From positions 1 to 64,000 of the forward strand of contig JBDRRP010000045.1 in assembly GCA_043825735.1 (NCBI GenBank): DNA of 64,000 bases. Direction: 5' to 3'. Every line of letters starts with the position of its first letter. The first letter of the stretch is position 1. Shown piece after piece: positions 7,385 through 64,000 of the stretch. The translations under genes were made by a program, and so were the position numbers. The notes under the pieces are model-generated. The model was not told the DNA's origin, ran no database searches, and saw only the letters and a program-made list of their open reading frames with translations. The DNA comes from Pseudomonadota bacterium. GTDB taxonomy: Bacteria > Desulfobacterota > Desulfobacteria > Desulfobacterales > JBDRRP01.

Positions 7385-8233
7385 TTACTTCACGGGCGCC
7401 ATACACCCAAAAATGTCATCCAGAACGCGCTCAGCCCGACACAGTTCCGCAGTGGATGCGAAAACGGATTCCAACTCTCGAAAAATGTCATCATAGCCAG
7501 ACGGCGCAATACCGGCGTCCCTACGGTTCACTGGTGCCCTGGGATATTCGCCATTTTCGAAAAAATAGTTGCTGGGCCCCGGCGCATCCGGCCGTCGGTA
7601 GGGCCAGTGGCGCTGCAACGCTGAAAACTCCCGCAGCAGCGCGGCGATGGCCGAGGACGGGAACGCATCGGCCTCCGCAAGCGGTCGCCCCAGGAGACGT
7701 TCCACCCTCTCGAACACCGCGGCAAGCAGTCGCCGCTCGGTGACCATGAGTCCGTAATCATACCAGGAATCGAAGGCTTGCCTGACAATCAAGAGGTGGG
7801 CCGCAGGAAGCTGCCGGGTCGACGGGCAAAAATAGGTGGCACAGGCCAGTCCCCCATAATAGCTCAGGCCTCGCCAATCGATGCCCGCGTTTCCCGCGGC
7901 CAAAGGATGGAGCAGGCAGCCCGCGCGGCGCTCCCCGTCAATGAGCCCCACGAAGGGACAGTGATGAAACCCCGGAAACGGTCGATCCGGGGGGCTGAAC
8001 CCCACGGCGCGCTCTGCAAAAGCATCGATGCCGGCAACCGTTCGGGGCACCTGGACAAAGGCCGCCGTGCGCTCCCGAAGCATGTCGGTGAGCGTTTCCC
8101 GGCTGAGACCGGCCACGTTGTAAAGTCCGCAGCATGCACCGCACGATAACGTGGCGCTGACCTGGCACATGTACACCCGCGGCGCATCCGGCGTCGAAGC
8201 TGCAACGGGTTCCGCGTGAACAGTGGATGGCAT
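7385..8233 (-). CDS. Cysteine-cluster protein (YkgJ-like, putative Fe-S/Zn binding), function unknown
   Basis: Motifs C..S..SCGACC, CPFVG, GCLLHP, C..YFCPS. Alternative upstream start at 8302. Confidence 0.6.
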   Translation of the reverse strand: MPSTVHAEPVAASTPDAPRVYMCQVSATLSCGACCGLYNVAGLSRETLTDMLRERTAAFVQVPRTVAGIDAFAERAVGFSPPDRPFPGFHHCPFVGLIDGERRAGCLLHPLAAGNAGIDWRGLSYYGGLACATYFCPSTRQLPAAHLLIVRQAFDSWYDYGLMVTERRLLAAVFERVERLLGRPLAEADAFPSSAIAALLREFSALQRHWPYRRPDAPGPSNYFFENGEYPRAPVNRRDAGIAPSGYDDIFRELESVFASTAELCRAERVLDDIFGCMAPVK

Positions 8234-50886: not shown

Positions 50887-53397
50887 ATGACTAATACCAT
50901 TCCTCCGCTGCCGGTCATGGATGCGGTCGGCGACGTGCGCCGGGCGCTCGCCGAGCGCGGCCGCGCCGTGCTCCAGGCCCCGCCGGGCGCCGGGAAAACC
51001 ACGGGCATCCCTCCGGCCCTGCTGGACGAGCCCTGGCTGGCCGGGCGGCGGATCATCGTACTGGCCCCCCGGCGCCTGGCCGCACGGGCCGCCGCCGCAC
51101 GCATGGCCCACATGATGGGAGAATCCGTGGGTGCCACCGTGGGCTACCGCGTGCGCATGGACACGAAGGTCAGCGCCGCCACTCGCATCGAAGTGGTCAC
51201 CGAGGGCGTTCTCACCCGGCGGCTCCAGCACGATCCGGCTCTGGAAGGCGTGGGCCTGGTGGTCTTCGACGAGTTCCACGAGCGCAGCCTCGACGCGGAC
51301 CTGGGCCTTGCCTTGTGCCTGGACATCCAGGGGGTGCTCAACGCCGATTTGCGCCTGCTGGTCATGTCGGCCACGCTGGAAACCGCGCCGGTGGCCGCGC
51401 TCCTTGGCGAAGCACCGGTGATCTCCTGCCCGGGAAAGGCCTATCCCGTGGAAACCCGCTTCGTGGGCCGGCACACCCCGGATCCGGCCATGGCCGGAAT
51501 CACCGAGGTCATCCTAACCGCCGCTCGGGAAGAAGACGGCAGCCTCCTGGTGTTTCTCCCCGGCGCCGGCGAGATCCGCCGGGTGGCAGCGCTGCTTGAC
51601 GTGGCCCGCCTGGGCAGCGAATGGATCATTGCCCCGCTCTACGGCAACCTTACCAGAACCCAGCAGGATCTGGCCATCTCACCCGCACCCCCGGACCGCC
51701 GTAAGATCGTACTGGCCACGTCCATCGCCGAAACCAGCCTCACCATCGAGGGCATCCGTGTGGTGGTGGACAGCGGGCTGCAGCGCACTGCCCGGTTCGA
51801 TCCGGGCACCGGACTCACCCGGCTGGTCACCATTCCGGTGTCCAGAGCCGCAGCGGATCAGCGCCGGGGCCGGGCCGGCCGGACCGCCCCCGGAATTTGC
51901 CTGCGCCTGTGGTCCGAGAGCATGCACCACGCGCTGCCCAGCGCCCACCGGCCCGAAATCCTGGAGGCCGATCTCGCCGGCCTGGCCCTGGAGCTGGCCC
52001 TTTGGGGGGTGGCCGACCCGACGCGGCTCAAGTGGTTGGATCCGCCCCCGCAGCCGGCCACTGCCGCGGCCACCGAACTGCTCCGGTCCCTGGGCGCACT
52101 GGATGACAGCGGCGCGATTACCGCTCACGGCCGAAAGATGGCGGCCCTGCCCGCCCACCCGCGGCTGGCCCACATGATGGTGGCCGCAGACGCGGAGGGC
52201 GCTGCGGCCGCCGCCTGCCACCTGGCCGCCCTTCTTGGTGAGCGGGACGTAGTGCGCTGGGATCGCGGTCAGGCAGATGTGGATATGGCTGTCCGCTTGA
52301 GCCTGGTGACGGCTGCCGAAATCAGGGGATTTTCGGGCGGCACCGTCGATCCGTCTGCACTGAAGCGGGTCCGGCAGGTGGCCGCTCAGTTTCGCCATCA
52401 CCTGAAAAGCCGGGAAGACAGGAAACCGGCCGCCGCCATCGGCCGGCTGCTGGCATGGGCCTATCCGGACCGCATCGCCCAGGCCCGCCCGGGCCAGCGG
52501 GGACGATATCTGCTCTCCAGCGGCCGGGGCGCGTTTTTGTACCCCGACGACCCCATGGCCGCCGAACCGTACCTGGTGGCGGTGGAACTGGACGGGGACC
52601 GTAATGAGACGCGCATCTTCCGGGCGGCCGCCTACCCCAAGGAAACATTGCAGGCGCAATTTGCCAGCGCGATCCGCTGGAAGACCACCGTCGCCTGGGA
52701 CGCCGACCGGCAGGCGGTGTCCGCCCGAAGGCAGGCCTTTCTGGGCGCCCTGTCGCTCCAGAGTGAATCCTTGGCCGATCCCGACCCGGCGCTCGTGTCG
52801 GCCGCGCTGATGGAAGGCATCCGCCGCGCCGGCATCGACTGCCTGCCATGGACCAAACGGCTGCGGGCCTGGCAGCGCCGGGTGATGTTTATGCATCGCA
52901 GCGCTCCGGAAGACTGGCCGGACCTTTCCGACGATCATCTCACGGCATCCCTGGAATCCTGGCTGGGTCCGGTTGCCGCCGGCATGGTCCGGCTCAAGGA
53001 GCTGGCCCGGGTGGACCTGACCGGGGCATTGACATCCCTGGTGCCCCGTCACCTGCAGCGGCGCCTGGACGATCTTGTCCCCACCCACTTTGTGGTTCCC
53101 AGCGGCTCACGCATCCCGATCGACTACGCGGGAGAAGCGCCGGTGCTGGCCGTGCGCCTCCAGGAGATGTTCGGCCTCACCGACACCCCCACCGTGGCCG
53201 GCGGCCGGGTGCCGATCGTGATTCATCTTCTCTCCCCCGCGAGCCGGCCGGTTCAGATCACCCGGGACCTGGCCAGTTTCTGGCGCACCGGCTACCCGGA
53301 AGTGAAAAAGGACCTGAAAGGCCGCTACCCCAAGCATCATTGGCCGGACGACCCCCTGACGGCCATGCCGACGGCCCGGGTCAAGCCTCGGGGGTAG
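50887..53397 (+). CDS. hrpB: ATP-dependent helicase HrpB
   Basis: APPGAGKTT, PRRLAAR, DEFHERS, MSAT, TSIAETSLTI.G, QRRGRAGR, and the HrpB C-terminus LLSPA.RPVQIT.DL..FW..GY..V.K.LKGRYPKH.WP. Confidence 0.96.
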   Translation: MTNTIPPLPVMDAVGDVRRALAERGRAVLQAPPGAGKTTGIPPALLDEPWLAGRRIIVLAPRRLAARAAAARMAHMMGESVGATVGYRVRMDTKVSAATRIEVVTEGVLTRRLQHDPALEGVGLVVFDEFHERSLDADLGLALCLDIQGVLNADLRLLVMSATLETAPVAALLGEAPVISCPGKAYPVETRFVGRHTPDPAMAGITEVILTAAREEDGSLLVFLPGAGEIRRVAALLDVARLGSEWIIAPLYGNLTRTQQDLAISPAPPDRRKIVLATSIAETSLTIEGIRVVVDSGLQRTARFDPGTGLTRLVTIPVSRAAADQRRGRAGRTAPGICLRLWSESMHHALPSAHRPEILEADLAGLALELALWGVADPTRLKWLDPPPQPATAAATELLRSLGALDDSGAITAHGRKMAALPAHPRLAHMMVAADAEGAAAAACHLAALLGERDVVRWDRGQADVDMAVRLSLVTAAEIRGFSGGTVDPSALKRVRQVAAQFRHHLKSREDRKPAAAIGRLLAWAYPDRIAQARPGQRGRYLLSSGRGAFLYPDDPMAAEPYLVAVELDGDRNETRIFRAAAYPKETLQAQFASAIRWKTTVAWDADRQAVSARRQAFLGALSLQSESLADPDPALVSAALMEGIRRAGIDCLPWTKRLRAWQRRVMFMHRSAPEDWPDLSDDHLTASLESWLGPVAAGMVRLKELARVDLTGALTSLVPRHLQRRLDDLVPTHFVVPSGSRIPIDYAGEAPVLAVRLQEMFGLTDTPTVAGGRVPIVIHLLSPASRPVQITRDLASFWRTGYPEVKKDLKGRYPKHHWPDDPLTAMPTARVKPRG

Positions 53398-53596
53398 AAA
53401 ACCGAATTGCGCCTTAACGGCTTAAAAGCGGCAGGGATTCAGGGATTGCGAATTGGCGGCCTTCGGCCGGAGGGCATATCCCCCGGTTTTCTCTGCGTCT
53501 CGGCGTCTCAGCGCGAGAATGGCTTTTTTGCTGGCGGATAAGTTGTGCGGATGAAAGGGTGGCCTCATCCTGGAAGATGCCGTTGATGGATGGGCA

Positions 53597-54445
53597 CTAT
53601 TTAGCGTTCAACGGGCGCACAGCCACGATCCACGGCTCCAGCCGGCTGCCGTAGGCCAATGTCACCTCGTAACGCGACGCGTCCGGATTTTCCCGCCGAG
53701 AAGTGTTTCCGCCCGCAATGGTCTCGAATGTCTTGCGAAAATCCAGCGGCACGAAAATATTTCCCACACTGAGCCTTGAGATATGCCCGAGCAAGGTCTT
53801 TCTGGCTTTGTCATAGGAGTAATCGGGTTCCACCAGGCCCCTGACAATAACGAACCGCGTCCGGTCTTCATATTTCTCGCGCAGAATCTGCGGGTTCAGC
53901 CCGGCATCGATCGCAAACAGCCGTGACTCACTCTCCCGTTCTTTCTTCAACCGATTTTCAGCTCTTTCGAACTGGTCGGCGACGGCCTTGTCACCATCTT
54001 TCTGTTTCAATAGATCCGCGACGCTTTCAAATGACTTTTCCGCTCTTTCAACAGCTTCACGGTATGAGGCGCCGTCGTATTCGAGCACGATGAACACTTC
54101 CTTTGAAATGGGTCGTTTGCGGGATGCCGCGCGCGTCTTCGCATCGATAGCGAATCCCAATGCCGTCAATTTTTCGGAATCGAGCCATAAGGGTGACGTC
54201 CATCCGGAATATCTGTTGTAATCTTCCTCCATGCCCAGGACCCGCCAATTAAGACGCAGTGACAGGCCGCTGTTTTCTTTTTTAAGCCGGTATGGCAGCG
54301 GCAACTCCCTTTCGGTGAGCGTGATCTGCGATTCGGGCTCACCCGATCGATTCGAAGCCACCCCGGTGAGGACGATGATGTTGGTCGCTGCGAGGATGAT
54401 AACCCCCAGCAAAAACAGCCCGCGGGAAGATGAGAGCCATGTCAT
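53597..54445 (-). CDS. DUF4824-like protein (N-terminal TM, periplasmic)
   Basis: N.IVL.GVA.NRSGEPES...LTEREL, ENSGLSL.L.WR, SRLFAIDAG, GSRLEPWI. Translationally coupled to the upstream membrane gene. Confidence 0.7.
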   Translation of the reverse strand: MTWLSSSRGLFLLGVIILAATNIIVLTGVASNRSGEPESQITLTERELPLPYRLKKENSGLSLRLNWRVLGMEEDYNRYSGWTSPLWLDSEKLTALGFAIDAKTRAASRKRPISKEVFIVLEYDGASYREAVERAEKSFESVADLLKQKDGDKAVADQFERAENRLKKERESESRLFAIDAGLNPQILREKYEDRTRFVIVRGLVEPDYSYDKARKTLLGHISRLSVGNIFVPLDFRKTFETIAGGNTSRRENPDASRYEVTLAYGSRLEPWIVAVRPLNAK

Positions 54446-55518
54446 GCGCACACCTCCTTTACTTTCCCGGTCAATGAGCTGCGGAGCCGTTTGAATACCA
54501 GCAATATCAATATCGCCGTGAGGCCGACGATCAGAAAGAAAAGATATTTTGGCATCCAGTCCCACCACCAGTCGTAAAATTTCGTATACAGAAAAATCGT
54601 GAAAAAGACGTTGCCGGTATTGACCACCTCCGGCCAGCCCTTCCGTATGCCAAGCCAGATGGCCCCGGCACTGAAAACAAAGCCCGCGCTCTGATAGACA
54701 TTCTCCACAGACGCGTTGCTCCAGTGAAGATAACTGCCCATGCCCCAGTTGGATAAAATCAGTACCGGTATAAAAAACAACAGCATCGCAAAAACGCGAT
54801 AAATGACGGCGAACCCGGAAAACCTGTGGTGAGGGATCACCGGTACGAAAAACAATATCAGTGCCGCCGGAAAGAAATTTTCAGGCCGCTCCCCGAAACT
54901 GATCCAGTAGCACCCGCTCCATGTCCCGGTCTTGGCCGACAGAAAGCAGGCAAAACTGATAATGCCCGCGGCCAGGAGCAGGCGTGCATCAATGCCGTAG
55001 GCAAGGATGAATGCAAAAACGGCCCACACCAGAAACGCGTTCGGGGACGGGGTGATGTTAAAGATCTGGCCCAGCATCGAGAGGTTCAGCACAAAGCAGG
55101 CAATGCTCACCATGCCCATCAGTTTGGAGAAATAACCTGTTTTTTCGCGGCGGGAGACGACCATGGTACCGGCAAGCGCGATAACAGGGGCGGCGATGAG
55201 AATGAAGACCTGAACGGTCGTCGAGAACCTTCCCCAAAATTGATAGAAGAGAAAAAACACGCTCGCCGCCAGTGCGACCGCGCCCAGAAAGGAAGCGATT
55301 TTCATCCCCAGGCTGAGTTGTTTTTCACCCTTGCTTGAATCGACATCAAAGGCTGACGACAGATGCGCAATCAAATCCTTATGGTAGTCAAAGATGGCAG
55401 AATGCTGGTTTTCACTGAGGGATACGATGTTTTCCTGTGCGATGATCTCCAACTCGGCACGGAAACTTCCGATCTGGTCAACTCTTCGCTGAGCATCGGC
55501 TTTCGATGTGACCGGCAT
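54442..55518 (-). CDS. DUF2157-like integral membrane protein
   Basis: About nine TM segments; GQIFNI..SP.AFL.W, KFYDWWW.WMPK.LFFL..G. Confidence 0.75.
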   Translation of the reverse strand: MPVTSKADAQRRVDQIGSFRAELEIIAQENIVSLSENQHSAIFDYHKDLIAHLSSAFDVDSSKGEKQLSLGMKIASFLGAVALAASVFFLFYQFWGRFSTTVQVFILIAAPVIALAGTMVVSRREKTGYFSKLMGMVSIACFVLNLSMLGQIFNITPSPNAFLVWAVFAFILAYGIDARLLLAAGIISFACFLSAKTGTWSGCYWISFGERPENFFPAALILFFVPVIPHHRFSGFAVIYRVFAMLLFFIPVLILSNWGMGSYLHWSNASVENVYQSAGFVFSAGAIWLGIRKGWPEVVNTGNVFFTIFLYTKFYDWWWDWMPKYLFFLIVGLTAILILLVFKRLRSSLTGKVKEVCA

Positions 55519-55545
55519 TGATCCACCCTTCCGAAATTGATTTTA

Positions 55546-56334
55546 TCATGAAATATTCATCTGCCGCAGCCACGCGATGATTCGGTCGGCGACCTTCTGC
55601 CAGTGTCCCTCCAGCATCATATCGTGGGCCATCCCGGGGAAGATTTCCGCCGTCGTGCCATAAGCTTCGGCGGTGGCCACCACTTCGTCCGGGGTGAAAA
55701 TGGTGTCGCCCGCCGCCCCCAGTACCAATACGTCGGTGTTGACGTTATACGGTTTCGGCAAACTGAACAGCATGTCCAGAAAGGCAAAATAGGATTCATC
55801 CTGCATGTGGTGGAAATATCCCTCGAGTTTTTCGGGTGAGATGTCGCTGGAGAAAAACGCTTCGCGGGTCAGCGCGGGGCTGCCGATGATGGGATAAAGG
55901 CTCAGCAGCAGGTTCGCCTTGATGAACGCCAGCGGATGGCGCCCTGCGATGCGCAGCGTCGTTCCGAGGGCGCCCCCCACGGGCACCGATGCCAGCAGTA
56001 CGGCCGCCGGGGCGTCGTTTTTTTCCAGGTATTTCTGGACCACCAGGCCGCCCATGGAGTGCCCGACCAGCACGGGCGCGGCGGATAGCTGCGCAAACAC
56101 CTGGTCGACATCGCTCACGTAGTCGTCGATCCGTGTCGTAAACAACCGGGCCGGACGCTCACTGCTTCCGTGGCCACGAAGGCTCAGTGCGTGGGCAGCA
56201 TATCCGCGCCCTGCGAAATACGGCAGAAAGTACTCTTCCCAGCACCAGGCGCCGTGCCAGGCACCGTGAACGAACAGCACGGGGGTGTCATGCGTGGCGC
56301 GCTCTGGGGTGTGCGTGATGACGTCGAGATTCAT
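55546..56334 (-). CDS. Alpha/beta hydrolase
   Basis: FVHGAWHGAWCW, LRGHG.S, nucleophile GHSMGG, catalytic D and AHDMM. Confidence 0.93.
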   Translation of the reverse strand: MNLDVITHTPERATHDTPVLFVHGAWHGAWCWEEYFLPYFAGRGYAAHALSLRGHGSSERPARLFTTRIDDYVSDVDQVFAQLSAAPVLVGHSMGGLVVQKYLEKNDAPAAVLLASVPVGGALGTTLRIAGRHPLAFIKANLLLSLYPIIGSPALTREAFFSSDISPEKLEGYFHHMQDESYFAFLDMLFSLPKPYNVNTDVLVLGAAGDTIFTPDEVVATAEAYGTTAEIFPGMAHDMMLEGHWQKVADRIIAWLRQMNIS

Positions 56335-56448
56335 TAGAAGAGTCCTTCCTGAGAGGTATGGAGAAGCGGCGGAAACGGCTCACTCGTTACCAGTTCTTTG
56401 TCTGCCCGCGCCAACGGCTGATGGTAATAAATCCGTATCCCGAGGTCT

Positions 56449-58194
56449 TCACTTGTAGCTGGCCAGCACTTCGAGAATGCCGCGTCCCACGGCGGCGCAC
56501 TCGGCCTCGGAGATGTTGGCCAGGGCCACCCGAAGGGACCAGTCCGGACCGGCGAACCCCTTGCCGGGCAGGCAGACAATGGCCTGCGCTCTGGCCAGAC
56601 GGAACACGAAATCCATCGGCTCGCCCTGCATCATCTTTTCGGCAAAGTCCTTGCCGTGCTTGGCCTCGGCCAGACGTCCCAGATCGATGAGCGCGTAGTA
56701 TCGGGTGAGGTTGTCGCCGGCGGGCGCCGCCATCCCCAGCGCGTCGAACAATGCGGCCCAGCGCTTTTTGAGGATGCCCATGATGGACGCCTTGTAGACA
56801 TAGCGCCCGTCGAGCAGCTCGAAGAGGGCAAACAGGCACATGGCGGCCTGCTGGGGTCCGGAGAGGCCGCCGGTGTGTGCCAGAGCCACCTGCCGCGAAT
56901 CCATCTCGAGCCGCTCATAAAACGGTATGGTCTTCGGGTCGGTGGAAGTCAGGCGGTAGCGCAGGTCCAGCCGGGCCTGGTCGCGTGTGGGCAGGCGGGC
57001 GATGATCCGGTCCACCACGCAGTTTTCGTGGACCATGACGGCCCCGAGTCGCCACCCGGTGACGCCGAAATACTTGGAAAAGGAGTACACTCCCAGGATG
57101 TTCTCCGGCAGGTACTGGCCGAATGTGGTGAAAGTGTCCACGAAGCTGGCGTAAACTGTGTCGGAGATGATGACCATGTCCGGGTTGTACTTGCGGATCG
57201 TGTCGGACATGCGCTTGACCGTGTCCGCGTTGAGGGAGACCGAAGTGGGGTTGGTGGGGTTGACCATATAAAGCGCTTTCACCTGCTTGTCCCTGAGCTT
57301 GGCCACCTCGGTGTCGGGGATCTGCCAACCCATCGCCTCGTCGCCCCGGATGTAGACAGTCTTCAGTCCGTAGTCGGCCAGTAATGGCAGCTCCAGATAG
57401 GGCGAAAAAATGGGCGTGACGATGGCCACTGTATCGCCGGGCCTGAGGACCATATTCTCTCGCAGTGAATTGAAGATATAGATCATTGCCGCGGTGGCGC
57501 CCTCGGTGGCGAAAAGATGGAATTTGCCCTTGGGCGGCTTTCCAGAAAAAACCACCCGGTCCAGGTACCGGCTTACGACGGCCTCGGTGACCGGAAAGAT
57601 CCGCGGCGGGTCAGGGTAGAAGTCGCCCTGGATGCCGTCGGTGAGTTGGAAGACCACGTCGTCGGGGGCCATCCCGAGCCGGGTCCTGGCATAATTCATG
57701 GCCTCGCGCAAATACACCCCGCCGTGTGCGCCGACCTGTCTGATCATGAACGCATCGAATTTGTCCGACAGTCCCTTGGCGTCGAGCCGATAGCCCACGT
57801 CGTCGATTTCTGAACCGGCGCCGGCCTGCTCCGCGGCAAACAGGGTGAGCTGAGCCAGCGCCGCTCTGGCGGTGGTGTTGAGAAAATTGGGGTTGCCGCG
57901 CCCGGCGTTGATCCATTGGCCGCCCGATCCCTTGGCGGCGGCCTTTTTGGCGTCATCGATGAGCAGGTTCTTGATTTCGAAAGGGCTTTCCTTGCGCAGA
58001 TCCGCCCAGTCCGGCGCTGCCGGTGCACCCGCTGCGGCCACCTGGGCCGGGCTGAGCCCCATGAGTGCCCCTGCCGCTGAGATGGACACCCCCATCGTTG
58101 CAGCATACCGGAAAAAATCACGCCGGCTGATGCGTCCGGCGCTTGCCTCGTCTGCCAATTCGACGACATAAGGGTGGGGGGTGCTGTCTGGCAT
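56449..58194 (-). CDS. asdA: Aspartate 4-decarboxylase/aminotransferase (PLP) with an N-terminal twin-arginine signal
   Basis: SPFEIKN.LI, NAGRGNPNF, YP.P, FATEGATAAM.YIF, PIFSPYLE, VNPTNP, D.VY, PLP-Lys SFSKYFG.TGWRLG, HTGGLS.PQQ. N-terminus SRRDFF followed by a hydrophobic stretch. AGGAGG RBS. Confidence 0.9.
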   Translation of the reverse strand: MPDSTPHPYVVELADEASAGRISRRDFFRYAATMGVSISAAGALMGLSPAQVAAAGAPAAPDWADLRKESPFEIKNLLIDDAKKAAAKGSGGQWINAGRGNPNFLNTTARAALAQLTLFAAEQAGAGSEIDDVGYRLDAKGLSDKFDAFMIRQVGAHGGVYLREAMNYARTRLGMAPDDVVFQLTDGIQGDFYPDPPRIFPVTEAVVSRYLDRVVFSGKPPKGKFHLFATEGATAAMIYIFNSLRENMVLRPGDTVAIVTPIFSPYLELPLLADYGLKTVYIRGDEAMGWQIPDTEVAKLRDKQVKALYMVNPTNPTSVSLNADTVKRMSDTIRKYNPDMVIISDTVYASFVDTFTTFGQYLPENILGVYSFSKYFGVTGWRLGAVMVHENCVVDRIIARLPTRDQARLDLRYRLTSTDPKTIPFYERLEMDSRQVALAHTGGLSGPQQAAMCLFALFELLDGRYVYKASIMGILKKRWAALFDALGMAAPAGDNLTRYYALIDLGRLAEAKHGKDFAEKMMQGEPMDFVFRLARAQAIVCLPGKGFAGPDWSLRVALANISEAECAAVGRGILEVLASYK

Positions 58195-58441
58195 GACGCC
58201 TCCTTTTGGGTTCAGTGTTATCGGAGCGCCCCACGAGCGGGGAGGGCTGGGGCAAAGTGGGTGCGGACACCATAACACGAATGCGGTGTGACGAAAATGT
58301 TAGCTGCCGATGGCGGCTGACAGTAGCGGCAGGCTGTCGCACTCTTGACCAGAATAAAACCCGCCCTATTCTTGTACACGTTGCAGCCGCGCGTCGGTGT
58401 CTGTGCAAAATGATCCAGGTACCGAACAATGGAGGGGGATC

Positions 58442-59146
58442 ATGCATAAAGACCGGAAGATCTCCAGGCGCACCTTCCTTGCCGCAGCCGGCGGCACCAT
58501 CGTGAGCATCGGTTTGCCCGGCGTTTTCATAAAATGCTCGGACGCGGATCAGCGCGCTCTGGCAGCCGACACCAGACCCGACGGCAGGCGCCGCCTTCCA
58601 CCCGGTCAGCAGGCGGTCGAAAGGATCCCGAATATGGGCGGCACGCCTGGAACCGCTACTGCTGCAAACTGGCGCCTGCGTGTCCATGGGGAGGTGGAAA
58701 GACCGCTCGTTCTTTCCTACCGAGAGCTGCTCGCCCTGGACCAGGTGAATATCATCTGCGATATTCACTGTGTCACGGGCTGGACGCTTCTGGATTCCAA
58801 CTGGCGCGGCGTTCGCCTGGCAACGATCCTGGATATCGTCAGGCCCCGCAGAAGCGGCGGTTTTGTCATTTTTGAGGCGGCCGGAGGTTACACCAGCAAC
58901 GTTCCCATCAGTGAGGCCCGAAAGGAAAACGTGATTCTTGCGCACAGTTTCTTTGGTGAGAAACTGCCGCAGGCGCACGGCGCTCCGGTGCGTGCCCTGG
59001 TCCCTGATCGCTATTTCTACAAGAGCGCCAAGTGGATAGAGGCGGTCAAAGTCACCGTTGTCGATGAGCCCGGGTTTTGGGAAAGCCGGGGTTTCAGCAA
59101 CGCCGCCGATCCATGGAAGGAAGAACGTTTTCAAAAGAAGCAGTGA
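58442..59146 (+). CDS. Molybdopterin-dependent oxidoreductase (sulfite oxidase/MsrP-like family) with Tat signal
   Basis: SRRTFL, LPPGQ, WRL.V.GEVE.P, DIHCVTGW, W.GV, HGAPVR..VP..Y.YKSAKW, GFWE.RG. Confidence 0.9.
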   Translation: MHKDRKISRRTFLAAAGGTIVSIGLPGVFIKCSDADQRALAADTRPDGRRRLPPGQQAVERIPNMGGTPGTATAANWRLRVHGEVERPLVLSYRELLALDQVNIICDIHCVTGWTLLDSNWRGVRLATILDIVRPRRSGGFVIFEAAGGYTSNVPISEARKENVILAHSFFGEKLPQAHGAPVRALVPDRYFYKSAKWIEAVKVTVVDEPGFWESRGFSNAADPWKEERFQKKQ

Positions 59147-59198
59147 GGCAGATGGCTGACGGCTTTAATTGTATCAATATTGACATAACAAATATTGA

Positions 59199-59456
59199 AT
59201 GATAGCCAAAGAATGCTATGGCTGCCGCCGGCATGAGGAAACGCTCATCGAGCAATTATCTGAAAGCCAAAAATTGAAGCGCACCGCATCCGAAAAAGAC
59301 ATAAAAACCGTTCAGGATTTTCAACGGAAAATTCGCTTCGAAATCTGGGGAGAAGAGGTGATCCAAAAGCAGGTGAAAGCCAGCGCCAATAGCGGCCGCG
59401 TGTATCTGCCGCCCGGGTGGGTCGGCCATAAAGTGAAAATTGTCCGAATGGACTAG
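59199..59456 (+). CDS. DUF2080-like (putative transposon-associated) small protein
   Basis: C-terminal GEEVIQKQVKASANSGRVYLPPGWVGHKVKIVR pattern. Start uncertain. Confidence 0.7.
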   Translation: MIAKECYGCRRHEETLIEQLSESQKLKRTASEKDIKTVQDFQRKIRFEIWGEEVIQKQVKASANSGRVYLPPGWVGHKVKIVRMD

Positions 59457-59502
59457 TACTGTTAAAGCAGCATATCGATTCATGGGGTGCCGTTTTTTCT
59501 TT

Positions 59503-59815
59503 TTAGTTGAGCACGCGTGTGCCGAAGACTTCGAATCGCGAGGCGGGGTGGCGTTTGGCCAGTGATGAAGCGGCCCACTGGGTTTTCAGGCGATCGAGAA
59601 AGGATGACGGGTCCGCCAAATCCTGGCCGCAGGCCCGGCAAAATGCCGGATAGTCCATGGGCCGCACCTGAAGCAGGTTGGATGCCCTGCCGTAAAGCGG
59701 CGCCGAACGGTTGAAAAACAAATCGTTCATCATTCGGGTGCTGGATCCGGCCAGAATCAAGAGTGCCCCCGACGGCATCGAATGATCCAGCCATTTTTGC
59801 AGACGGGCACTTTGA
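59503..59815 (-). pseudogene. Remnant of an archaeal-type AAA ATPase (ATPase_2/DUF234-like)
   Basis: RLQKWLD...LILAGSS..MM.......APLYGRA...L.V.PM is a mid-protein segment of this family. Walker A/B and most of the C-terminal half are missing. Confidence 0.65.
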
Positions 59816-59829
59816 CTGTTGTTATTCAT

Positions 59830-60240
59830 GTGCACGAAGGGCGTGGCAAAAGCATCTGCCGCTCAGGCCGCGTGGATCGACTCGCCGGTGTCAATGCCGA
59901 CCCGGTGGGGCGTCTTTTCAACGGTGACCGGGTAGGCCCAGGTCACCGCCCCGGTGGGGTTTCGAAACAAAAAGGTCATGTGCCGCTGCAAGTCGTCGAG
60001 AATGGCGATCACGGTTTCCCGCGGCAGGTCAAGGGCGCCGGCGACATCGTCCGGCGTTACGGGCCGGCCGTAGCGCGGCAGTTCGCGCACCACGAAATGG
60101 TGGACCCGGCGATGGCCGGCCGTCATAAACCGCAAATTGCGCCCGATTTTCAGTTTGCCTTTTTCGCTCTGTTTTTCCCAAAGTATCGGCGGCACACCGA
60201 TCATGGACTTCCACAGCTCCGCCATCAGCTTGTTGGACAT
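59830..60240 (-). CDS. MerB (organomercurial lyase)-like protein, probable selenoprotein, apparently C-terminally truncated
   Basis: Strong RBS (AAGGAGG). wHTH-like region, WAYPVT...TPHRV, then IHAA-TGA(59865-59863)-AADAFATPFVH, aligning with MerB YAWC96ALD99. Confidence 0.7.
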
Positions 60241-60478
60241 TTCTCATCCTCCTTTCCAAGGTCAAATCGGTTTCCGGCGAAATGGCAATTACTTTTATGC
60301 TAATACAGAAAGCGCCAGTTGGTCTTTTCCCAAAGTGATGTTGAACCACGGAGCCATCGGGATAGGGTGTGAACCTGTACACGGGTCAAGCGATATTTAT
60401 TTTCCGTCCGCCCGTGGACGGATCGGTTTCATTCAATCGACCGTGCTCAGCGCCGCCATGATGCAGGTGCTCATATTC

Positions 60479-60613
60479 TGATGCATTCGTAAAAAGTCTG
60501 AAATCACCACAGAGGACGCAGAGAGCGCAGAGATAACTTTTTAATTATTCATAATATTCTCTGCGGTCCTCTGCGCTCTCTGTGGTTCAAAATCACTTTT
60601 TACGGTTACATCA
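60479..60613. mobile_element. Small MITE-like element with 19-bp TIRs enclosing inverted 9-bp repeat arms
   Basis: TGATGCATTCGTAAAAAGT ... ACTTTTTACGGTTACATCA. Inner ACCACAGAGGACGCAGAGAGCGCAGAGA / TCTCTGCGGTCCTCTGCGCTCTCTGTGGT. Confidence 0.7.
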
Positions 60614-60799
60614 CACATTGACATTTGTCGCATTGCTGATGAGTTATTCTTTCAATGTGTAGGTCTGACCCTATGTTTTTTCGCGCTCCCGGCGCCCCAT
60701 GGATCTTGCGGGATAGGCGAGCCGTATCATCGTCCTTCCCGGGTTTTCACTGTATTATTTACGTTGACATCGTAAATATTACAGGTTATTTGTGTTTCC

Positions 60800-62071
60800 A
60801 TGTCGAATTTTCCCCCATACCTGACGCGAAGCCTGACAGACCGCCTACCGCCGCCCGACACCCCGCGCATCGCCGTGCTTACCGGTGCCCGGCAAACCGG
60901 GAAAACAACCCTTGCCAGACGGGTTTACCCGGGCCTTCGCTACATCAATCTTGATGCGCCGGAAAACCGCGATGCTTTGCGGGAAACCAGCACCATCGGC
61001 TGGGGGCAAACAATCGGAAACGCCATTATCGACGAGGCCCATAAAGCGCCTGTCGTATTTGAAAAGGTGAAGTACGCCTTTGATGAAAAGGATATTTCTT
61101 TTACCGTGCTGACCGGTTCCAGCCAGATCCTCCTTTTGAAAAACATTTGCGAATCGCTGGCAGGCCGGGCTTTTTTTTATGAACTCTGGCCGATGATGCA
61201 ATGCGAGTTGTGCAGTCACCTGTCGTCCGGGGAAACCGGTCCACCGATGTTGCACCACCTGGCGGCAGCGCCTGACATCGGCGCATTCATGTCTTCGATG
61301 TCAAACATGGTGCTCGAAGCTGAGGATTTCCCGAGTAAAGCGATTGAAGCCCACCTGCTCGCGTGGGGCGGTATGCCCTCACTGCTTGAGCTTTCCGACG
61401 AGGACCGGTGGCAGTGGTTGAAAAACTATGGACACACCTACCTCGAGCGCGATTTGCGGGACCTTTCGCGCATGGATGATCTGGCACCTTTTCGCAAGTT
61501 TCAGAAACTATCCGCGCTACGCTCGGCGATGCTGCTGAATTATTCTGAACTGGCCAGAGATGCCGCAATCAGTGTGGACACCGCCCGCCGTTATCTTGAA
61601 TACCTGCGCATCTCCTACCAGATCGTGCTGCTGCAGCCCTACTACCGCAACCTGACCAGTTCGGCGGTCAAGACACCCAAGCTGTACTGGACCGATATCG
61701 GCATCTGGCGACAATTGACCGGCTTTCGCGGCGCGTCTTCCGGGCAACTGTACGAGAGCATGGTGGTTTCCGAAGTGATCAAGTGGGTGCGAACGGCTCA
61801 GGACGATCTTGATGTCTATTACTACAGGACGCGGTCGGGTCTGGAGGTGGACTTGCTTTTGGAAAATGCTCAGGGGGTGATCGGCATAGAAATCAAATCA
61901 CGCGAGACCATCTCCGGCCCTGACACCAGCGCACTCAAGGCCGTGGCCCTGGCCCTGGGGGACCGCTGGCGCGGAGGACTGGTCATTTACTCCGGGCGAC
62001 GGATCGAACGGATCGCAGACCCGAATATCTGGGCAATCCCCAGCCGGCGGCTGTTCCAACCGCTGCAATAA
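60800..62071 (+). CDS. AAA_14 ATPase with DUF4143 (COG1373-type)
   Basis: GARQTGKTT, IIDE, LTGSS, ESLAGR, GGMP, YLERD, KTPKLY..D.G, YES.V, YYRTRSGLEVD, IEIK. Confidence 0.92.
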   Translation: MSNFPPYLTRSLTDRLPPPDTPRIAVLTGARQTGKTTLARRVYPGLRYINLDAPENRDALRETSTIGWGQTIGNAIIDEAHKAPVVFEKVKYAFDEKDISFTVLTGSSQILLLKNICESLAGRAFFYELWPMMQCELCSHLSSGETGPPMLHHLAAAPDIGAFMSSMSNMVLEAEDFPSKAIEAHLLAWGGMPSLLELSDEDRWQWLKNYGHTYLERDLRDLSRMDDLAPFRKFQKLSALRSAMLLNYSELARDAAISVDTARRYLEYLRISYQIVLLQPYYRNLTSSAVKTPKLYWTDIGIWRQLTGFRGASSGQLYESMVVSEVIKWVRTAQDDLDVYYYRTRSGLEVDLLLENAQGVIGIEIKSRETISGPDTSALKAVALALGDRWRGGLVIYSGRRIERIADPNIWAIPSRRLFQPLQ

Positions 62072-62258
62072 GCCCGGCGCAGAGGATGCTTCGATCGCTG
62101 TACATATTTTATGTTCCATGATATCAGGCGCTTACAATGCTTAAATTTATATTCTAAGATGTCCCCAACTCCCACGCTTTTTATGGAACTATCGAAATTG
62201 ACGATTCACGACAAGTTTCTGCCGCCCAGGGGCACCAGACGCCGTTTATGGGTGGGGA

Positions 62259-63314
62259 CTAACTAGCTGCATTGGCGGTGGCTATCGCGCCGGCCGCGGC
62301 CACAATGGCCGCGGCCTCGTCCGGGCGTGGCGCGAGGGGATAGACGGACTGCCACCCGTCAAGCCCGATAACCACCGGCGCGGCGACCACGCCGTGAATA
62401 TCCAGCCATTCACCGGCCAGCGCGACCTGCGCTGGAATCACCCTGAGATCGCTGCCGACAAAGGCCCTGACCATCTCGAGCACGGCGTGGGCGGTTGCCA
62501 TTTCAGTGGTGTGACCCGTCGTGAAGTGGGTGAAAAAAGGCTTTACCACCGCGCGCAGATCCGCCGGCAACGCCTGGACATAGGCGTATGCCGCCTCGAT
62601 CTGTCCACTTTTGACAAGCTGCAGCATCCGGCCCTTGTGGGTGCGTGATTCATTGGGAAATTCGGCCATTGTCCGCCCCGCACGGGACTTGCCGCACAGG
62701 GCCTCGACCGCGGCCGCTGGGACGCCGCTCACCCGCAACTGGCTCCACAACGCAACGGCATGGTCACCATGCTGGCCCAGCATGAACGTGTTGACCCGGG
62801 GCCTTGCCACGCCCATATCAGCGGCGATCTCGGCGCGCAGCCTCAGCGTGTCCGAGAGCGCGCCCGCACCCAGGACCTGCCTCGGCCCCAGCCGCTCGGC
62901 GAAGATCTTCACGCCGAGTTCCACCGGGTTAGACTGGACGATGACCACGGGCGGCCGCCCCGGGCGCGCAGCCAGCGCATCGGCATAGTTCGCGAAAATC
63001 CGGCCATTGGTCTTGCCCAGGGCTGCGCGGTCGATAGGGGCATTGGGGTCGGTTGAAATGGTGACACCCGCCAGCATGACAACCAGATCGCCGTCCACCG
63101 CGTCAGGATCCAGTACGACTTCGATAGACGGCGCATGGTCTACAAACGCGTCCTCCAGATCGGCACGCAACCCCCACAGCTCGTGCTCACTGCTTCCGCC
63201 ATGGTGGCCGACCAATTGCACCCGGGCGCTGGGAGGCAGGAGGTTTTCGTCCAAAAGTTGCGCAGCCACTTGTCGACCGCAGTGCCCCGCGGCCCCGATG
63301 ATCGAAACGTTCAT
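62259..63314 (-). CDS. Lactate/malate dehydrogenase superfamily protein, atypical
   Basis: IIGAAGHCG, D.VVMLAG, R..L..N..I, SNPVE, DTLR, GQHGD. Confidence 0.85.
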   Translation of the reverse strand: MNVSIIGAAGHCGRQVAAQLLDENLLPPSARVQLVGHHGGSSEHELWGLRADLEDAFVDHAPSIEVVLDPDAVDGDLVVMLAGVTISTDPNAPIDRAALGKTNGRIFANYADALAARPGRPPVVIVQSNPVELGVKIFAERLGPRQVLGAGALSDTLRLRAEIAADMGVARPRVNTFMLGQHGDHAVALWSQLRVSGVPAAAVEALCGKSRAGRTMAEFPNESRTHKGRMLQLVKSGQIEAAYAYVQALPADLRAVVKPFFTHFTTGHTTEMATAHAVLEMVRAFVGSDLRVIPAQVALAGEWLDIHGVVAAPVVIGLDGWQSVYPLAPRPDEAAAIVAAAGAIATANAAS

Positions 63315-63693
63315 ACACTCCTCCGTTGCATGGCGTCAGTCCCCTGTTTTCGTCGTTTAGGGTAGATAAACCATGAATTGGCTAACGTTTGACATGCGTT
63401 TCCCATTTCAACTAAACTATCATCGATATTTGTAAAAAGTGAAGCATGAATATGCAGGCCCCATGAGAGTGGGCCTGTGCGTCGCTGACTATGTCTACTC
63501 AGCGATTTGAGCAGCAGATGGCACACCCTGAAGAGATACTTGTGCAGACTCTTTAGGTTATCGCTTACACAACACACCGTCCCCAACTCACCCCTTATCT
63601 CTCTGTTGCGCACGCGCCTCACGCCGGGGCTTTACCGCGTGTAAGAATTGTTGACACTCATCGATTTCCGAAGCTGGTGGCGATCGCCCCTTA

Positions 63694-63842
63694 CTATTGT
63701 CCATCCATAAACGGCATCTTTCGGCCCAGAGCTGCGTATTCACATTTTTTTAAACCACCGAAATAGAAGGCTATTCCGCTGGTTTCGAAAATGCTCAAGC
63801 CTTGCTCTGAACTAAAATCTACCATTTCTGGATAGACACTAA
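63694..63842. mobile_element. ~145-bp MITE-like element, copy 2
   Basis: Its reverse complement aligns along the whole length with 31709-31853 (CCAGAAA.GGTAGATTTT.GTTC...GCAAGGC..GAGCA.TTT.GAAACC...GGAATAGCCT.CTATTT...AAAGATGCCGTTTATGG.TGGACA). Confidence 0.8.
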
Positions 63843-63925
63843 CTATACCAAAAGCCAAGCGATTCCTGTTGTGATGATCTTGGTATGATATTTGCTGATT
63901 TCTCAAAAACAATGGAGGGGACGAT

Positions 63926-64000
63926 ATGGCTAAAAATTTCAGTGTACGCGCGAAAAAAAGCAGCGATCGCGCCCTGGCATTAATGTTGTCCGGCGATTTT
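63926..64000 (+). CDS. Hypothetical protein, N-terminus only (possibly STAS-like)
   Basis: GGAGG RBS then ATG 63926: MAKNFSVRAKKSSDRALALMLSGDF, open to the window edge. Confidence 0.6.
   Translation, partial: MAKNFSVRAKKSSDRALALMLSGDF

Follow-up and report, generated by a model that had tools for sequence, protein, structure and literature searches.

Aspartate 4-decarboxylase is a cytoplasmic enzyme that conserves energy only when it operates together with a precursor/product exchanger, and enzymes of the AsdA family also desulfinate cysteine sulfinate. The known AsdA/AspD enzymes (EC 4.1.1.12) used here for comparison are those of PDB entries 2ZY2-2ZY5, the Pseudomonas dacunhae enzyme (3FDD), and the AspD of Tetragenococcus halophilus, which is accompanied by AspT. 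AspT and AspD are described as an exchange/decarboxylation cycle that generates proton-motive force and conserves free energy (PMC13631041). Two PLP enzymes of Pseudomonas, PvdN and PtaA, are described as periplasmic, Tat-exported proteins of pyoverdine tailoring (PMC13673990).

The window analyzed here, a stretch of 64,000 nucleotides, encodes a relative of AsdA/AspD (Table 1). Two equivalog models recognize the protein well above their cut-offs, namely, NCBIfam NF006755 (630.3 bits, cut-off 321) and TIGR03801 (543.2 bits, cut-off 435.1), with both alignments starting at residues 63-70. Similarly, phmmer aligned residues 61-575 with residues 3-517 of the solved enzyme 2zy3_A (411 bits); this alignment begins only at residue 61, and therefore the protein carries about 60 extra N-terminal residues. 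The AlphaFold2 model (pLDDT 85.4) had 2zy3_F as its best Foldseek match (E 8e-42, TM (target) 0.87, 520 aligned columns), and solved AsdA enzymes matched it with TM of 0.87-0.89 and 38-41% identity. Residues K315, D286, N256, Y289, R323, R497, Y134, and R37 of 2zy3 correspond to K374, D345, N315, Y348, R382, R555, Y193, and R99 of the window protein, respectively; K315 is the PLP Schiff-base lysine, and R37 is the arginine of the NAGRGNPNF loop that is specific to AsdA vs ordinary aminotransferases. The equivalents of R37, Y134, N256, D286, Y289, S312, S314, K315, and R323 are kept in all 113 aligned relatives, and that of R497 in 112 of the 113. A further arginine of the solved enzyme, R487, the mutant of which is the subject of entry 2zy5 according to its title, is replaced by K545 in the window protein and is Arg in 5 of the 113 relatives only. 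The equivalog matches and the retention of all catalytic residues tested bear out the initial description, made from sequence alone, of an intact AsdA/AspD-type PLP enzyme: the protein belongs to the aspartate 4-decarboxylase family, and the corresponding catalysis is predicted.

Table 1 Coordinates of the AsdA-family gene, its predicted parts, and the flanking genes in the window
Feature	Coordinates	Strand	Basis or details
AsdA-family PLP enzyme precursor, complete CDS (581 aa + stop)	56449..58194	minus	ORF, translation, HMMs, fold match
Shine-Dalgarno (SD) AGGAGG	58199..58204	minus	direct sequence reading; 4-nt spacer to ATG at 58194
Predicted Tat signal peptide, residues 1-55	58030..58194	minus	n-region 1-22, S-R-R-D-F-F 23-28, h-region ~30-50, A-A-A 53-55
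Twin-arginine core S23-R24-R25-D26-F27-F28	58111..58128	minus	translation; motif also in homologues
Predicted mature enzyme, residues 56-581	56452..58029	minus	phmmer alignment to 2zy3_A; collinear with the solved cytoplasmic enzyme, starting at residue 3 of the latter
Lys374 codon, equivalent of K315 in 2zy3, motif SFSKYFG	57073..57075	minus	phmmer alignment and conservation
Small molybdopterin oxidoreductase (sulfite-oxidase/YedY fold), divergent, own RR leader ISRRTFLAAAGG	58442..59146	plus	PF00174 134 bits
Alpha/beta hydrolase without leader, 115 nt downstream	55546..56334	minus	PF12697 91 bits

The N-terminal extension has the layout of a twin-arginine leader: SRRDFFR (S23-R29) is followed by an uncharged stretch (residues 30-50) and by A53-A54-A55, after which we infer that the signal would be cleaved. 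The leader string quoted in the sequence-only reading corresponds to residues 7-55. A strict leader rule, [ST]RR.F[LFIVM] followed by at least 13 uncharged residues near a start, fits just 17 of the 7651 long ORF segments in the genome carrying the window, and these are mostly recognizable Tat substrates. Generic Tat-signal HMMs scored the leader below their cut-offs (TIGR01409, 9.3 vs 16.7 bits; PF10518, 11.5 vs 22.7 bits). However, the short Tat HMMs are insensitive here, because the clearer RR leader of the adjacent molybdoenzyme also falls short of both (15.3 and 18.3 bits, the latter for PF10518 with its cut-off of 22.7). In the AlphaFold2 model, the leader consists of helices with pLDDT of 65-83, and pLDDT drops below 50 at residues 56-59, just past the predicted cut. 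The longest ORF at this position starts with a GTG at 58278 that is devoid of an AGGAGG-like site; the strong ribosome-binding site noted earlier was recovered before the downstream ATG (Table 1), so that a Tat-type leader of about 60 residues, complete with twin-arginine motif, h-region, and AAA, would be translated from an SD-preceded ATG, as had been proposed. Among the relatives, 24 of 26 Tat-type loci have, 5′ of the RR codons, an ATG preceded by an SD-like motif, and in 23 of these the distance to RR is 22-28 codons. In the window gene itself, direct sequence reading revealed no SD-like context at the codons for Met34 and Met45. A start downstream of the RR motif, which would deprive the protein of its signal, is thus disfavored by both observations, although the start site, too, is predicted.

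The leader is not peculiar to this genome. Out of 116 full-length close homologues surveyed, 82 possess the same twin-arginine leader, 11 carry a Sec-type signal, 18 have none, and 2 are KR variants; the 82 sequences, which come from several phyla, share even the long segment preceding the motif (HPxVxExAxE..G..SRRDFF). Across 80 species genomes, we identified 26 Tat-type and 12 Sec-type loci (along with 36 leaderless ones); the whole family comprises about 208 representatives at E <= 1e-30. R24, R25, and F27 are invariant in the 26 aligned clade members. As judged by eye, most members of the clade display AxA-like sites such as AQA, AEA, and AAA. In a Desulfovibrio homologue (P0058/L020), the RR leader ends in a lipobox-like MSGC that replaces the AxA site, and in two relatives (P0060, P0062) KR replaces RR and the hydrophobic cores are weak. 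Just before the NAGRGNPNF loop, 47 of the 82 Tat forms, together with 9 of the 11 Sec forms, possess a pair of Cys residues that none of the 18 leaderless close relatives or the 38 leaderless representatives at 50% identity has; the pair is also missing from the window protein and from the five relatives nearest to it. All leaderless close relatives fall into a single clade of 31 rows, which also contains Sec-type forms, and therefore the contrasts in leader, carrier, and Cys content represent few independent events. By source name, carriers of the exported-type gene belong mostly to sulfur-cycling lineages (Desulfovibrionaceae, Desulfobulbales, Dethiosulfatarculus, Sulfurovum), and the cultured ones include Pseudodesulfovibrio, Desulfogranum, Sulfurovum sp. 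NBC37-1, and Allorhodopirellula solitaria. None of 40 other genomes of the same order contained a homologue at E <= 1e-30; thus, the window gene is sporadic in the order and was probably acquired.

This distribution bears on the origin of the leader. Because it is common to 82 of 116 homologues across phyla, the leader is old in the clade and was not recently captured in the genome at hand. When that genome was searched with a profile of 79 leaders, the best match was indeed a DctP-type binding protein (E 4.4e-5), in line with the likeness to Tat-exported solute-binding proteins observed initially, but the match spans the RR motif and hydrophobic core only, and other Tat substrates match as well: the next were a beta-carbonic anhydrase, the small subunit of a NiFe-hydrogenase, and a 4Fe-4S protein, and all four have RR leaders. 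At the level of sequence, the resemblance to the binding protein is a generic likeness among Tat leaders. The suggestion that the signal peptide was captured from such a protein is not supported, given the clade-wide leader and the generic nature of the profile matches.

The genomic context was examined using crude gene calls and BLAST clustering for 81 sources (80 loci and the window), complemented with a Pfam scan of the 82 proteins encoded within two genes of the Tat-type gene in either direction. Across the 26 Tat-type loci, no gene family was found repeatedly next to this gene, and a conserved operon partner was accordingly rejected. The divergent molybdoenzyme located ~250 nt from the AsdA gene scores best as YedY/MsrP-like, albeit below the MsrP cut-off (72.5 vs 207 bits) and below every sulfite dehydrogenase cut-off, and its best PDB match is 1xdq (50 bits). 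It was also dismissed as a conserved partner, being a singleton among the loci; just 6 of the 24 Tat-clade genomes encode relatives of it, in every case away from the AsdA gene. The downstream alpha/beta hydrolase gene is possibly co-transcribed with the AsdA gene; the gap between the two genes (56335-56448) contains no terminator-like site according to a simple scan, and the hydrolase is not conserved at other AsdA loci. An APC-family permease is encoded directly upstream of the gene in 13 of 36 leaderless loci, in contrast to 0 of 26 Tat and 0 of 12 Sec loci. Consistent with the earlier remark that no aspartate:alanine antiporter is adjacent, no AspT was found among the neighboring genes, and the search of the whole genome (100% complete, 3.69% contamination) with TIGR03802 produced no match at all. 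With neither an exchanger in the genome nor a carrier in the neighboring genes, the locus does not constitute an antiport module of the AspT/AspD type. Of 24 Tat-clade genomes, one has an AspT match above cut-off, encoded away from the AsdA locus. Furthermore, searches for three more carrier families, SDF/DAACS, Dcu, and AgcS, detected none of them in the genome of the window, and AspA was not found above cut-off. The same genome encodes DsrA, as befits a sulfite-reducing bacterium. Elsewhere in the survey, a Planctomycetales locus (L030) has a type II asparaginase with a Sec signal 41 nt downstream of the AsdA gene, and an AspA gene lies nearby in two other loci (L013 and L029).

On balance, and with modest confidence, we favor the view that the gene product is an aspartate beta-decarboxylase that carries a cleavable twin-arginine signal and is exported to the periplasm by Tat. 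The protein would fold and take up PLP in the cytoplasm, probably as a fold-type-I dimer, and the long leader would then direct the precursor to the TatABC translocase (three TatC matches to PF00902 exceed the cut-off in the genome, the best at 251.7 bits). Cleavage by signal peptidase after Ala53-Ala54-Ala55 would produce a mature enzyme starting a few residues before the known cytoplasmic N-termini. In the periplasm, L-aspartate would be converted to L-alanine and CO2 with consumption of one periplasmic proton; an aspartate:alanine exchanger would not be needed, since both substrate and product would be outside, and alanine could then be imported and oxidized via alanine dehydrogenase, for which a gene is present (523 bits, above cut-off). 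Such an exported form cannot build proton-motive force, and would be of use for converting the substrate or for consuming protons in the periplasm. We infer that the predicted export would be a topological alternative to the decarboxylase plus antiporter modules of leaderless relatives. The periplasmic enzyme envisaged from the start gains from the clade-wide leader, the Sec and lipobox variants, and the confinement of carriers to the leaderless forms, which all favor an extracytoplasmic site while leaving it a prediction; in particular, the apparent convergence of Tat, Sec, and lipobox-like signals on one enzyme speaks for export. Solved AsdA enzymes are dodecamers according to their PDB entry titles, and because a dodecamer is too large for Tat, either export would precede assembly or the clade would be non-dodecameric. 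Counting against the favored reading, periplasmic decarboxylation would waste the free energy that is kept by the AspT/AspD cycle (PMC13631041). Further points against it are the sub-threshold Tat HMM scores, the lack of a recurrent neighbor at the 26 Tat-type loci, the missing Cys pair in the window protein and its closest relatives, the few independent events behind the contrasts with the leaderless forms, and the Lys at the R487 position.

Two alternatives concern the location of the protein. It would be cytoplasmic if the leader were a non-functional relic or if the start of translation lay 3′ of the RR codons. The Tat HMM scores below cut-off could be read in this way, as could the KR relatives with weak cores, which indicate that leaders can decay; to our knowledge, every characterized member of the AsdA family is cytoplasmic. 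Nevertheless, we regard this as the least credible of the readings considered, given that RR and the Phe at +2 are invariant in the 26-sequence alignment, that the segment before RR is kept at the protein level across phyla, and that 23 of 26 loci preserve the spacing of SD and ATG from the RR codons, with no SD-like context at Met34/Met45 of the window protein. A cytoplasmic enzyme would, in addition, need a carrier, and all carrier families tested are absent from the genome. Alternatively, the exported enzyme might stay on the outer face of the cytoplasmic membrane via an uncleaved leader. The long h-region of ~20 uncharged residues and the helical leader of the model would suit such a tether, and the lipobox-like MSGC of one homologue implies membrane attachment there, but the AAA following the h-region in the window protein, the similar sites seen by eye in most clade members, and the low pLDDT immediately past the AAA site render tethering distinctly unlikely.

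The other two alternatives accept export and differ in chemistry. If the substrate were L-cysteine sulfinate or another beta-anionic alanine, the enzyme would act as a periplasmic desulfinase releasing alanine and sulfite. Sequence cannot tell aspartate and cysteine sulfinate apart, and the desulfinase activity of AsdA enzymes, the mostly sulfur-cycling carriers, the DsrA in the genome of the window, and the Tat-type molybdoenzyme of sulfite-oxidase fold next door all point in this direction. Yet we deem it unlikely: the molybdoenzyme does not accompany the gene at other loci and is YedY/MsrP-like, the hints from other neighborhoods (the asparaginase and AspA genes) favor asparagine/aspartate, and periplasmic sulfite would still need to be imported, because dissimilatory sulfite reduction is cytoplasmic. 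A transaminase or other PLP enzyme acting on a periplasmic metabolite, in the manner of PtaA and PvdN and without decarboxylase activity, would agree with the NCBI family name ([quoted passage not shown]), with the variability of the R487 equivalent in this branch, and with the Tat-exported PLP enzymes documented so far, which modify periplasmic secondary metabolites (PMC13673990). We find this very improbable, considering that all 113 relatives retain the AsdA-specific R37 equivalent and that the gene lies outside biosynthetic clusters at each of the 26 loci; a periplasmic keto-acid partner would also be required.

A full-text literature search, in which periplasm-related matches were judged by title and the start of the abstract, returned no description of an exported AsdA. 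The branch in which AsdA itself bears a predicted export signal is large and, as far as this search goes, undescribed. An exported branch operating without an exchanger would reverse the textbook layout of AsdA. Should export be confirmed, it would add a third type of PLP enzyme to the Tat substrates, and the first amino-acid decarboxylase of the AsdA family, would reveal that one and the same enzyme naturally occurs either coupled to a carrier or exported, and would suggest that sulfate reducers and bacteria of marine sediments convert amino acids in the periplasm. Several bacteria with the gene are cultured, and the idea of export is therefore directly testable. The Sec-type relatives pose the question of how a PLP enzyme exported unfolded gains its cofactor outside the cell. 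A broader and rather doubtful possibility is that AsdA-like enzymes with Tat, Sec, and lipoprotein signals make up an unrecognized extracytoplasmic class of beta-decarboxylases/desulfinases in sulfur-cycling anaerobes, Campylobacterota, and Planctomycetota, in which the layouts “carrier + cytoplasmic decarboxylase” and “export the decarboxylase” were switched repeatedly. If this were true, the members of the class might do what the classical module cannot, for example, liberate sulfite at the cell surface from cysteine sulfinate present in the environment, or use periplasmic protons and thereby buffer the pH of the envelope alongside GAD/HDC-type systems.

Compared with the known systems, the window protein shares with AsdA/AspD the family HMMs, the fold (TM 0.87-0.89), and all PLP and substrate residues tested, but differs from the solved enzymes in its twin-arginine leader of 55-60 residues and in the Lys at the position equivalent to R487. 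Unlike in the AspT/AspD system, the genome contains no AspT, and hence the window enzyme cannot run that proton-motive cycle. PvdN and PtaA provide a precedent for periplasmic delivery of PLP-loaded fold-type-I enzymes by Tat (PMC13673990), although they belong to other PLP families, perform other chemistry, and are embedded in a siderophore pathway. The closest leaderless relatives, those accompanied by an APC carrier, have the same catalytic residues; they lack the leader and the loop Cys pair, however, and the upstream APC gene of 13 of the 36 leaderless loci has no counterpart at any of the 38 loci encoding the predicted exported forms.

The sequence-only reading gave the right coordinates for the AsdA-family gene, which lies on the minus strand, and its description of the product as an intact AsdA-type enzyme was confirmed: the protein passes the cut-offs of both equivalog HMMs (NF006755, 630.3 bits versus 321; TIGR03801, 543.2 bits versus 435.1) and has the equivalents of the PLP and substrate residues tested. 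Because both matches start no earlier than residue 63-70 and residues 3-517 of the solved L-aspartate beta-decarboxylase 2zy3_A align with residues 61-575 of the window protein (411 bits), about 60 N-terminal residues are extra. An AlphaFold2 model built from a 26-sequence clade alignment (mean pLDDT 85.4) has 2zy3_F as its top Foldseek match (E 8e-42, TM 0.87). With residue equivalences taken from the 2zy3_A alignment, R37, the arginine of the catalytic NAGRGNPNF loop, as well as Y134, N256, D286, Y289, S312, S314, K315 and R323 are kept in the window protein and 113/113 aligned relatives, and R497 in 112/113. The solved enzyme differs at R487 (R487A mutant structure, 2zy5), which is Lys in the window protein and Arg in only five of the 113 relatives. 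Public annotation of these homologues is plain bifunctional AsdA.

In its residue pattern, the extension (MPDSTPHPYVVELADEASAGRI-SRRDFFR-YAATMGVSISAAGALMGLSPAQV-AAA-G) is built as a twin-arginine signal would be: its n-region is long, the motif S-R-R-x-F-F-R is near-consensus, an uncharged core of ~20 residues comes next and small residues form the predicted cut site. The clade alignment shows no variation at R24, R25 or F27, and model pLDDT falls below 50 exactly at residues 56-59. The ATG follows a Shine-Dalgarno AGGAGG with a 4-nt spacer. Similarly, an SD-like motif and ATG lie upstream of the RR in 24/26 Tat-type loci (22-28 codons upstream in 23), which argues against the translation start downstream of the RR that the sequence-only reading had considered. 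The leader scores under the cut-offs of the generic Tat HMMs TIGR01409 (9.3 versus 16.7 bits) and PF10518 (11.5 versus 22.7 bits), as does the textbook RR leader of the neighbouring molybdoenzyme. A strict rule ([ST]RR.F[LFIVM] near the start, then >=13 uncharged residues) selects 17/7651 long ORF segments of the window's genome, hydrogenase small subunit included; TatC has three matches there. When a profile of 79 clade leaders was searched against all 24,495 ORF segments of this genome, it recovered the window protein's own leader (84.7 bits), then a DctP-type binding protein (E 4.4e-5), followed by a beta-carbonic anhydrase, the NiFe-hydrogenase small subunit and a 4Fe-4S protein (E 0.06-0.09), and all four non-self matches have RR leaders. 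The proposed capture of the leader from a solute-binding protein is rejected, because the DctP match spans the RR motif and hydrophobic core alone and the leader is old within the clade.

The same leader recurs among homologues, as the survey suggested by the sequence-only reading revealed. From 8000 candidates scored, 2083 had E <= 0.001; the best 120 were taken, and four (P0087, P0092, P0105, P0110), fragments or lacking the SPFE anchor, were left out, three of them with RR leaders. By automatic labels corrected by hand, 82 of the 116 remaining best-matching homologues carry a twin-arginine leader of the same design, 11 a Sec-type leader and 18 none; three are N-terminally truncated gene calls. 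The other two, P0060 and P0062, have KR in place of RR (VNKRNFLKY, LSKRNFLKY), and the core that follows is only weakly hydrophobic; these leaders may be decaying or atypical. The segment before the RR is also conserved at the protein level (H-P-x-V-x-E-x-A-x-E...G..S-R-R-D-F-F-K/R-Y-A), by source name in Maridesulfovibrio, Pseudodesulfovibrio, Desulfogranum, Desulfoplanes, Sulfurovum sp. NBC37-1 and planctomycetes. A contig scan of one genome per species matched 245 stretches, yielding 178 relatives; the best 80 comprise 26 Tat-type, 12 Sec-type and 36 leaderless forms and six without the anchor motif. Sec-type loci come, by source name, from Syntrophales, Smithella, Elusimicrobia, Desulfovibrionaceae, Verrucomicrobiota, Sumerlaeota and others; one (L056) has a lipobox-like FISC. 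In one delta-proteobacterial MAG (L021) the AsdA frame opens, behind a stop codon, only ~19 codons upstream of the mature domain, and the leader seems lost or broken by pseudogenisation, frameshift or assembly error. In the whole family (208 representatives at 50% identity, E <= 1e-30), full-length representatives with a leader are outnumbered, ~5 to 31-38, by those lacking one.

Coordinates of the AsdA gene, its surroundings and related loci
Feature	Location	Strand	Remarks
AsdA-family ORF	56449..58194	-	581 codons; ORF and translation
Molybdoenzyme, sulfite-oxidase/YedY fold	58442..59146	+	234 aa, own RR leader; divergent neighbour of AsdA gene
Alpha/beta hydrolase	55546-56334		directly downstream of AsdA
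DUF4824 protein (251 bits) and DUF2157 membrane protein	53597-55518	-	overlapping ORFs just downstream of the hydrolase
DUF2080 'transposon-encoded', weak match	59199-59456		within low-G+C stretch 53000-64000
DUF4143 AAA ATPase	60800-62071		within low-G+C stretch 53000-64000
Asparaginase-domain match	G000:C89:3562-4004 (window's genome)		two open frames, 117 + 239 aa
AsdA frame, delta-proteobacterial MAG	L021:8001-9578
Porin-like gene, Tat-type AsdA, asparaginase	L030:5959-10890 (Planctomycetales MAG)		consecutive on one strand; porin upstream
Alpha/beta hydrolase, Sec-type Desulfovibrionaceae locus	L054:9924-11009		directly downstream of AsdA
Sec-type AsdA loci	L037, L039, L040, L044, L053, L054, L056, L058, L059, L060, L063, L065		gene start near 8000 in most

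Export signals on AsdA relatives differ, being Tat, Sec and at least one RR leader ending in a lipobox-like MSGC (P0058, locus L020, a Desulfovibrio genome); such variety on one enzyme is an independent sign of work outside the cytoplasm. For Sec-type forms, a PLP enzyme exported unfolded could take up its cofactor only once outside the cell. As a second sign of extracytoplasmic work, a Cys pair (C-x4-10-C) directly before the NAGRGNPNF loop, equivalent in the alignment to P0001 (window protein) residues 86-92, occurs in 47/82 Tat and 9/11 Sec forms, whereas it is found in 0/18 leaderless close relatives and 0/38 leaderless 50%-identity representatives, the latter count leaving out 16 without the anchor motif. 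It may be an export-specific disulfide adjoining the R37 loop; the window protein, like the five relatives closest to it, lacks the pair. C566 is Tat-clade-specific too (98%). As a third sign, an APC-family permease (AA_permease_2, ~470 aa) is the immediate upstream neighbour, in the same orientation, in 13/36 leaderless loci (anywhere in the locus in 17/36), and beside the gene in 0/26 Tat-type and 0/12 Sec-type loci. A FastTree phylogeny computed from the mature regions of all 116 homologues groups the 18 leaderless close relatives in a single clade (SH-like support 99), nested with Sec-type forms in a 31-row group (support 100); thus, the Cys-pair and carrier contrasts represent few independent events. 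A Tat clade of 71 rows (support 96) includes the window protein; another 14 Tat rows are placed only weakly.

The absence of AspT noted near the gene extends to the genome (100% complete, 3.69% contamination), which has no match to TIGR03802. Nor were DAACS (PF00375), DcuA/B or AgcS carriers found, in a survey restricted to these carrier families and AspT. Among 24 Tat-clade genomes, one has AspT above cut-off, away from the AsdA locus. The window's genome encodes alanine dehydrogenase (523 bits versus 392) and DsrA; nothing exceeds the aspartase cut-off, and the best match (487 bits versus 681) is likely a fumarase. A split asparaginase gene in this genome may be frameshifted.

No conserved partner gene was found among Tat-type loci. 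In Planctomycetales locus L030 a type II asparaginase with a Sec signal (TIGR00520, 440 bits) lies 41 nt downstream of AsdA, in a row that looks like a periplasmic Asn -> Asp -> Ala chain. Aspartate ammonia-lyase is encoded near AsdA in L013 and L029, glutamate decarboxylase adjoins it in L016, and histidine-decarboxylase-like genes stand beside it in L031 (Tat-type) and L060 (Sec-type). These scattered neighbours (3-5/38 loci) favour an enzyme that acts on aspartate and point to a theme of amino-acid decarboxylation. The divergent molybdoenzyme, with its Tat leader and sulfite-oxidase/YedY fold, makes a tie of the exported enzyme to sulfite suggestive. However, it adjoins AsdA at the window locus only, with relatives in 6/24 clade genomes; it scores under every NCBIfam cut-off (MsrP, 72.5 bits versus 207), and its immediate surroundings showed no MsrQ-like partner. 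An alpha/beta hydrolase lies downstream of AsdA in both the window and L054; the two are not clustered by BLAST and their shared position may be coincidence. Given the absence of AsdA from all 40 other same-order genomes searched and the lower, uneven G+C from 53 kb onward, after the HrpB helicase gene (0.52-0.64 versus 0.64-0.70 before), the gene was probably acquired; window 53000-64000 may be an accessory region.

Collectively, the data establish an intact AsdA-family enzyme with a conserved extension of Tat anatomy, in a genome with TatC and no exchanger. Judged from sequence, we consider export of the window AsdA likely and export with aspartate as substrate somewhat better than an even bet. 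The enzyme would fold and load PLP in the cytoplasm, be exported folded by Tat, lose its leader by cleavage after AAA(53-55) and convert periplasmic L-aspartate into L-alanine and CO2, the alanine then being taken up and oxidized. PvdN and PtaA are precedents for PLP-loaded enzymes exported by Tat (review, PMC13673990). The main difficulties are that solved AsdA enzymes are dodecamers and that periplasmic decarboxylation offers no clear energetic benefit. In the classical system, AspT brings in aspartate in exchange for internal alanine and AspD in the cytoplasm uses a proton, generating proton-motive force (PMC13631041), whereas a periplasmic enzyme cannot build this force. Our literature search found no paper linking AsdA to Tat, a signal peptide or the periplasm; both the enzyme family and the export route are known, and it is their combination, with its no-exchanger consequence, that appears undescribed.
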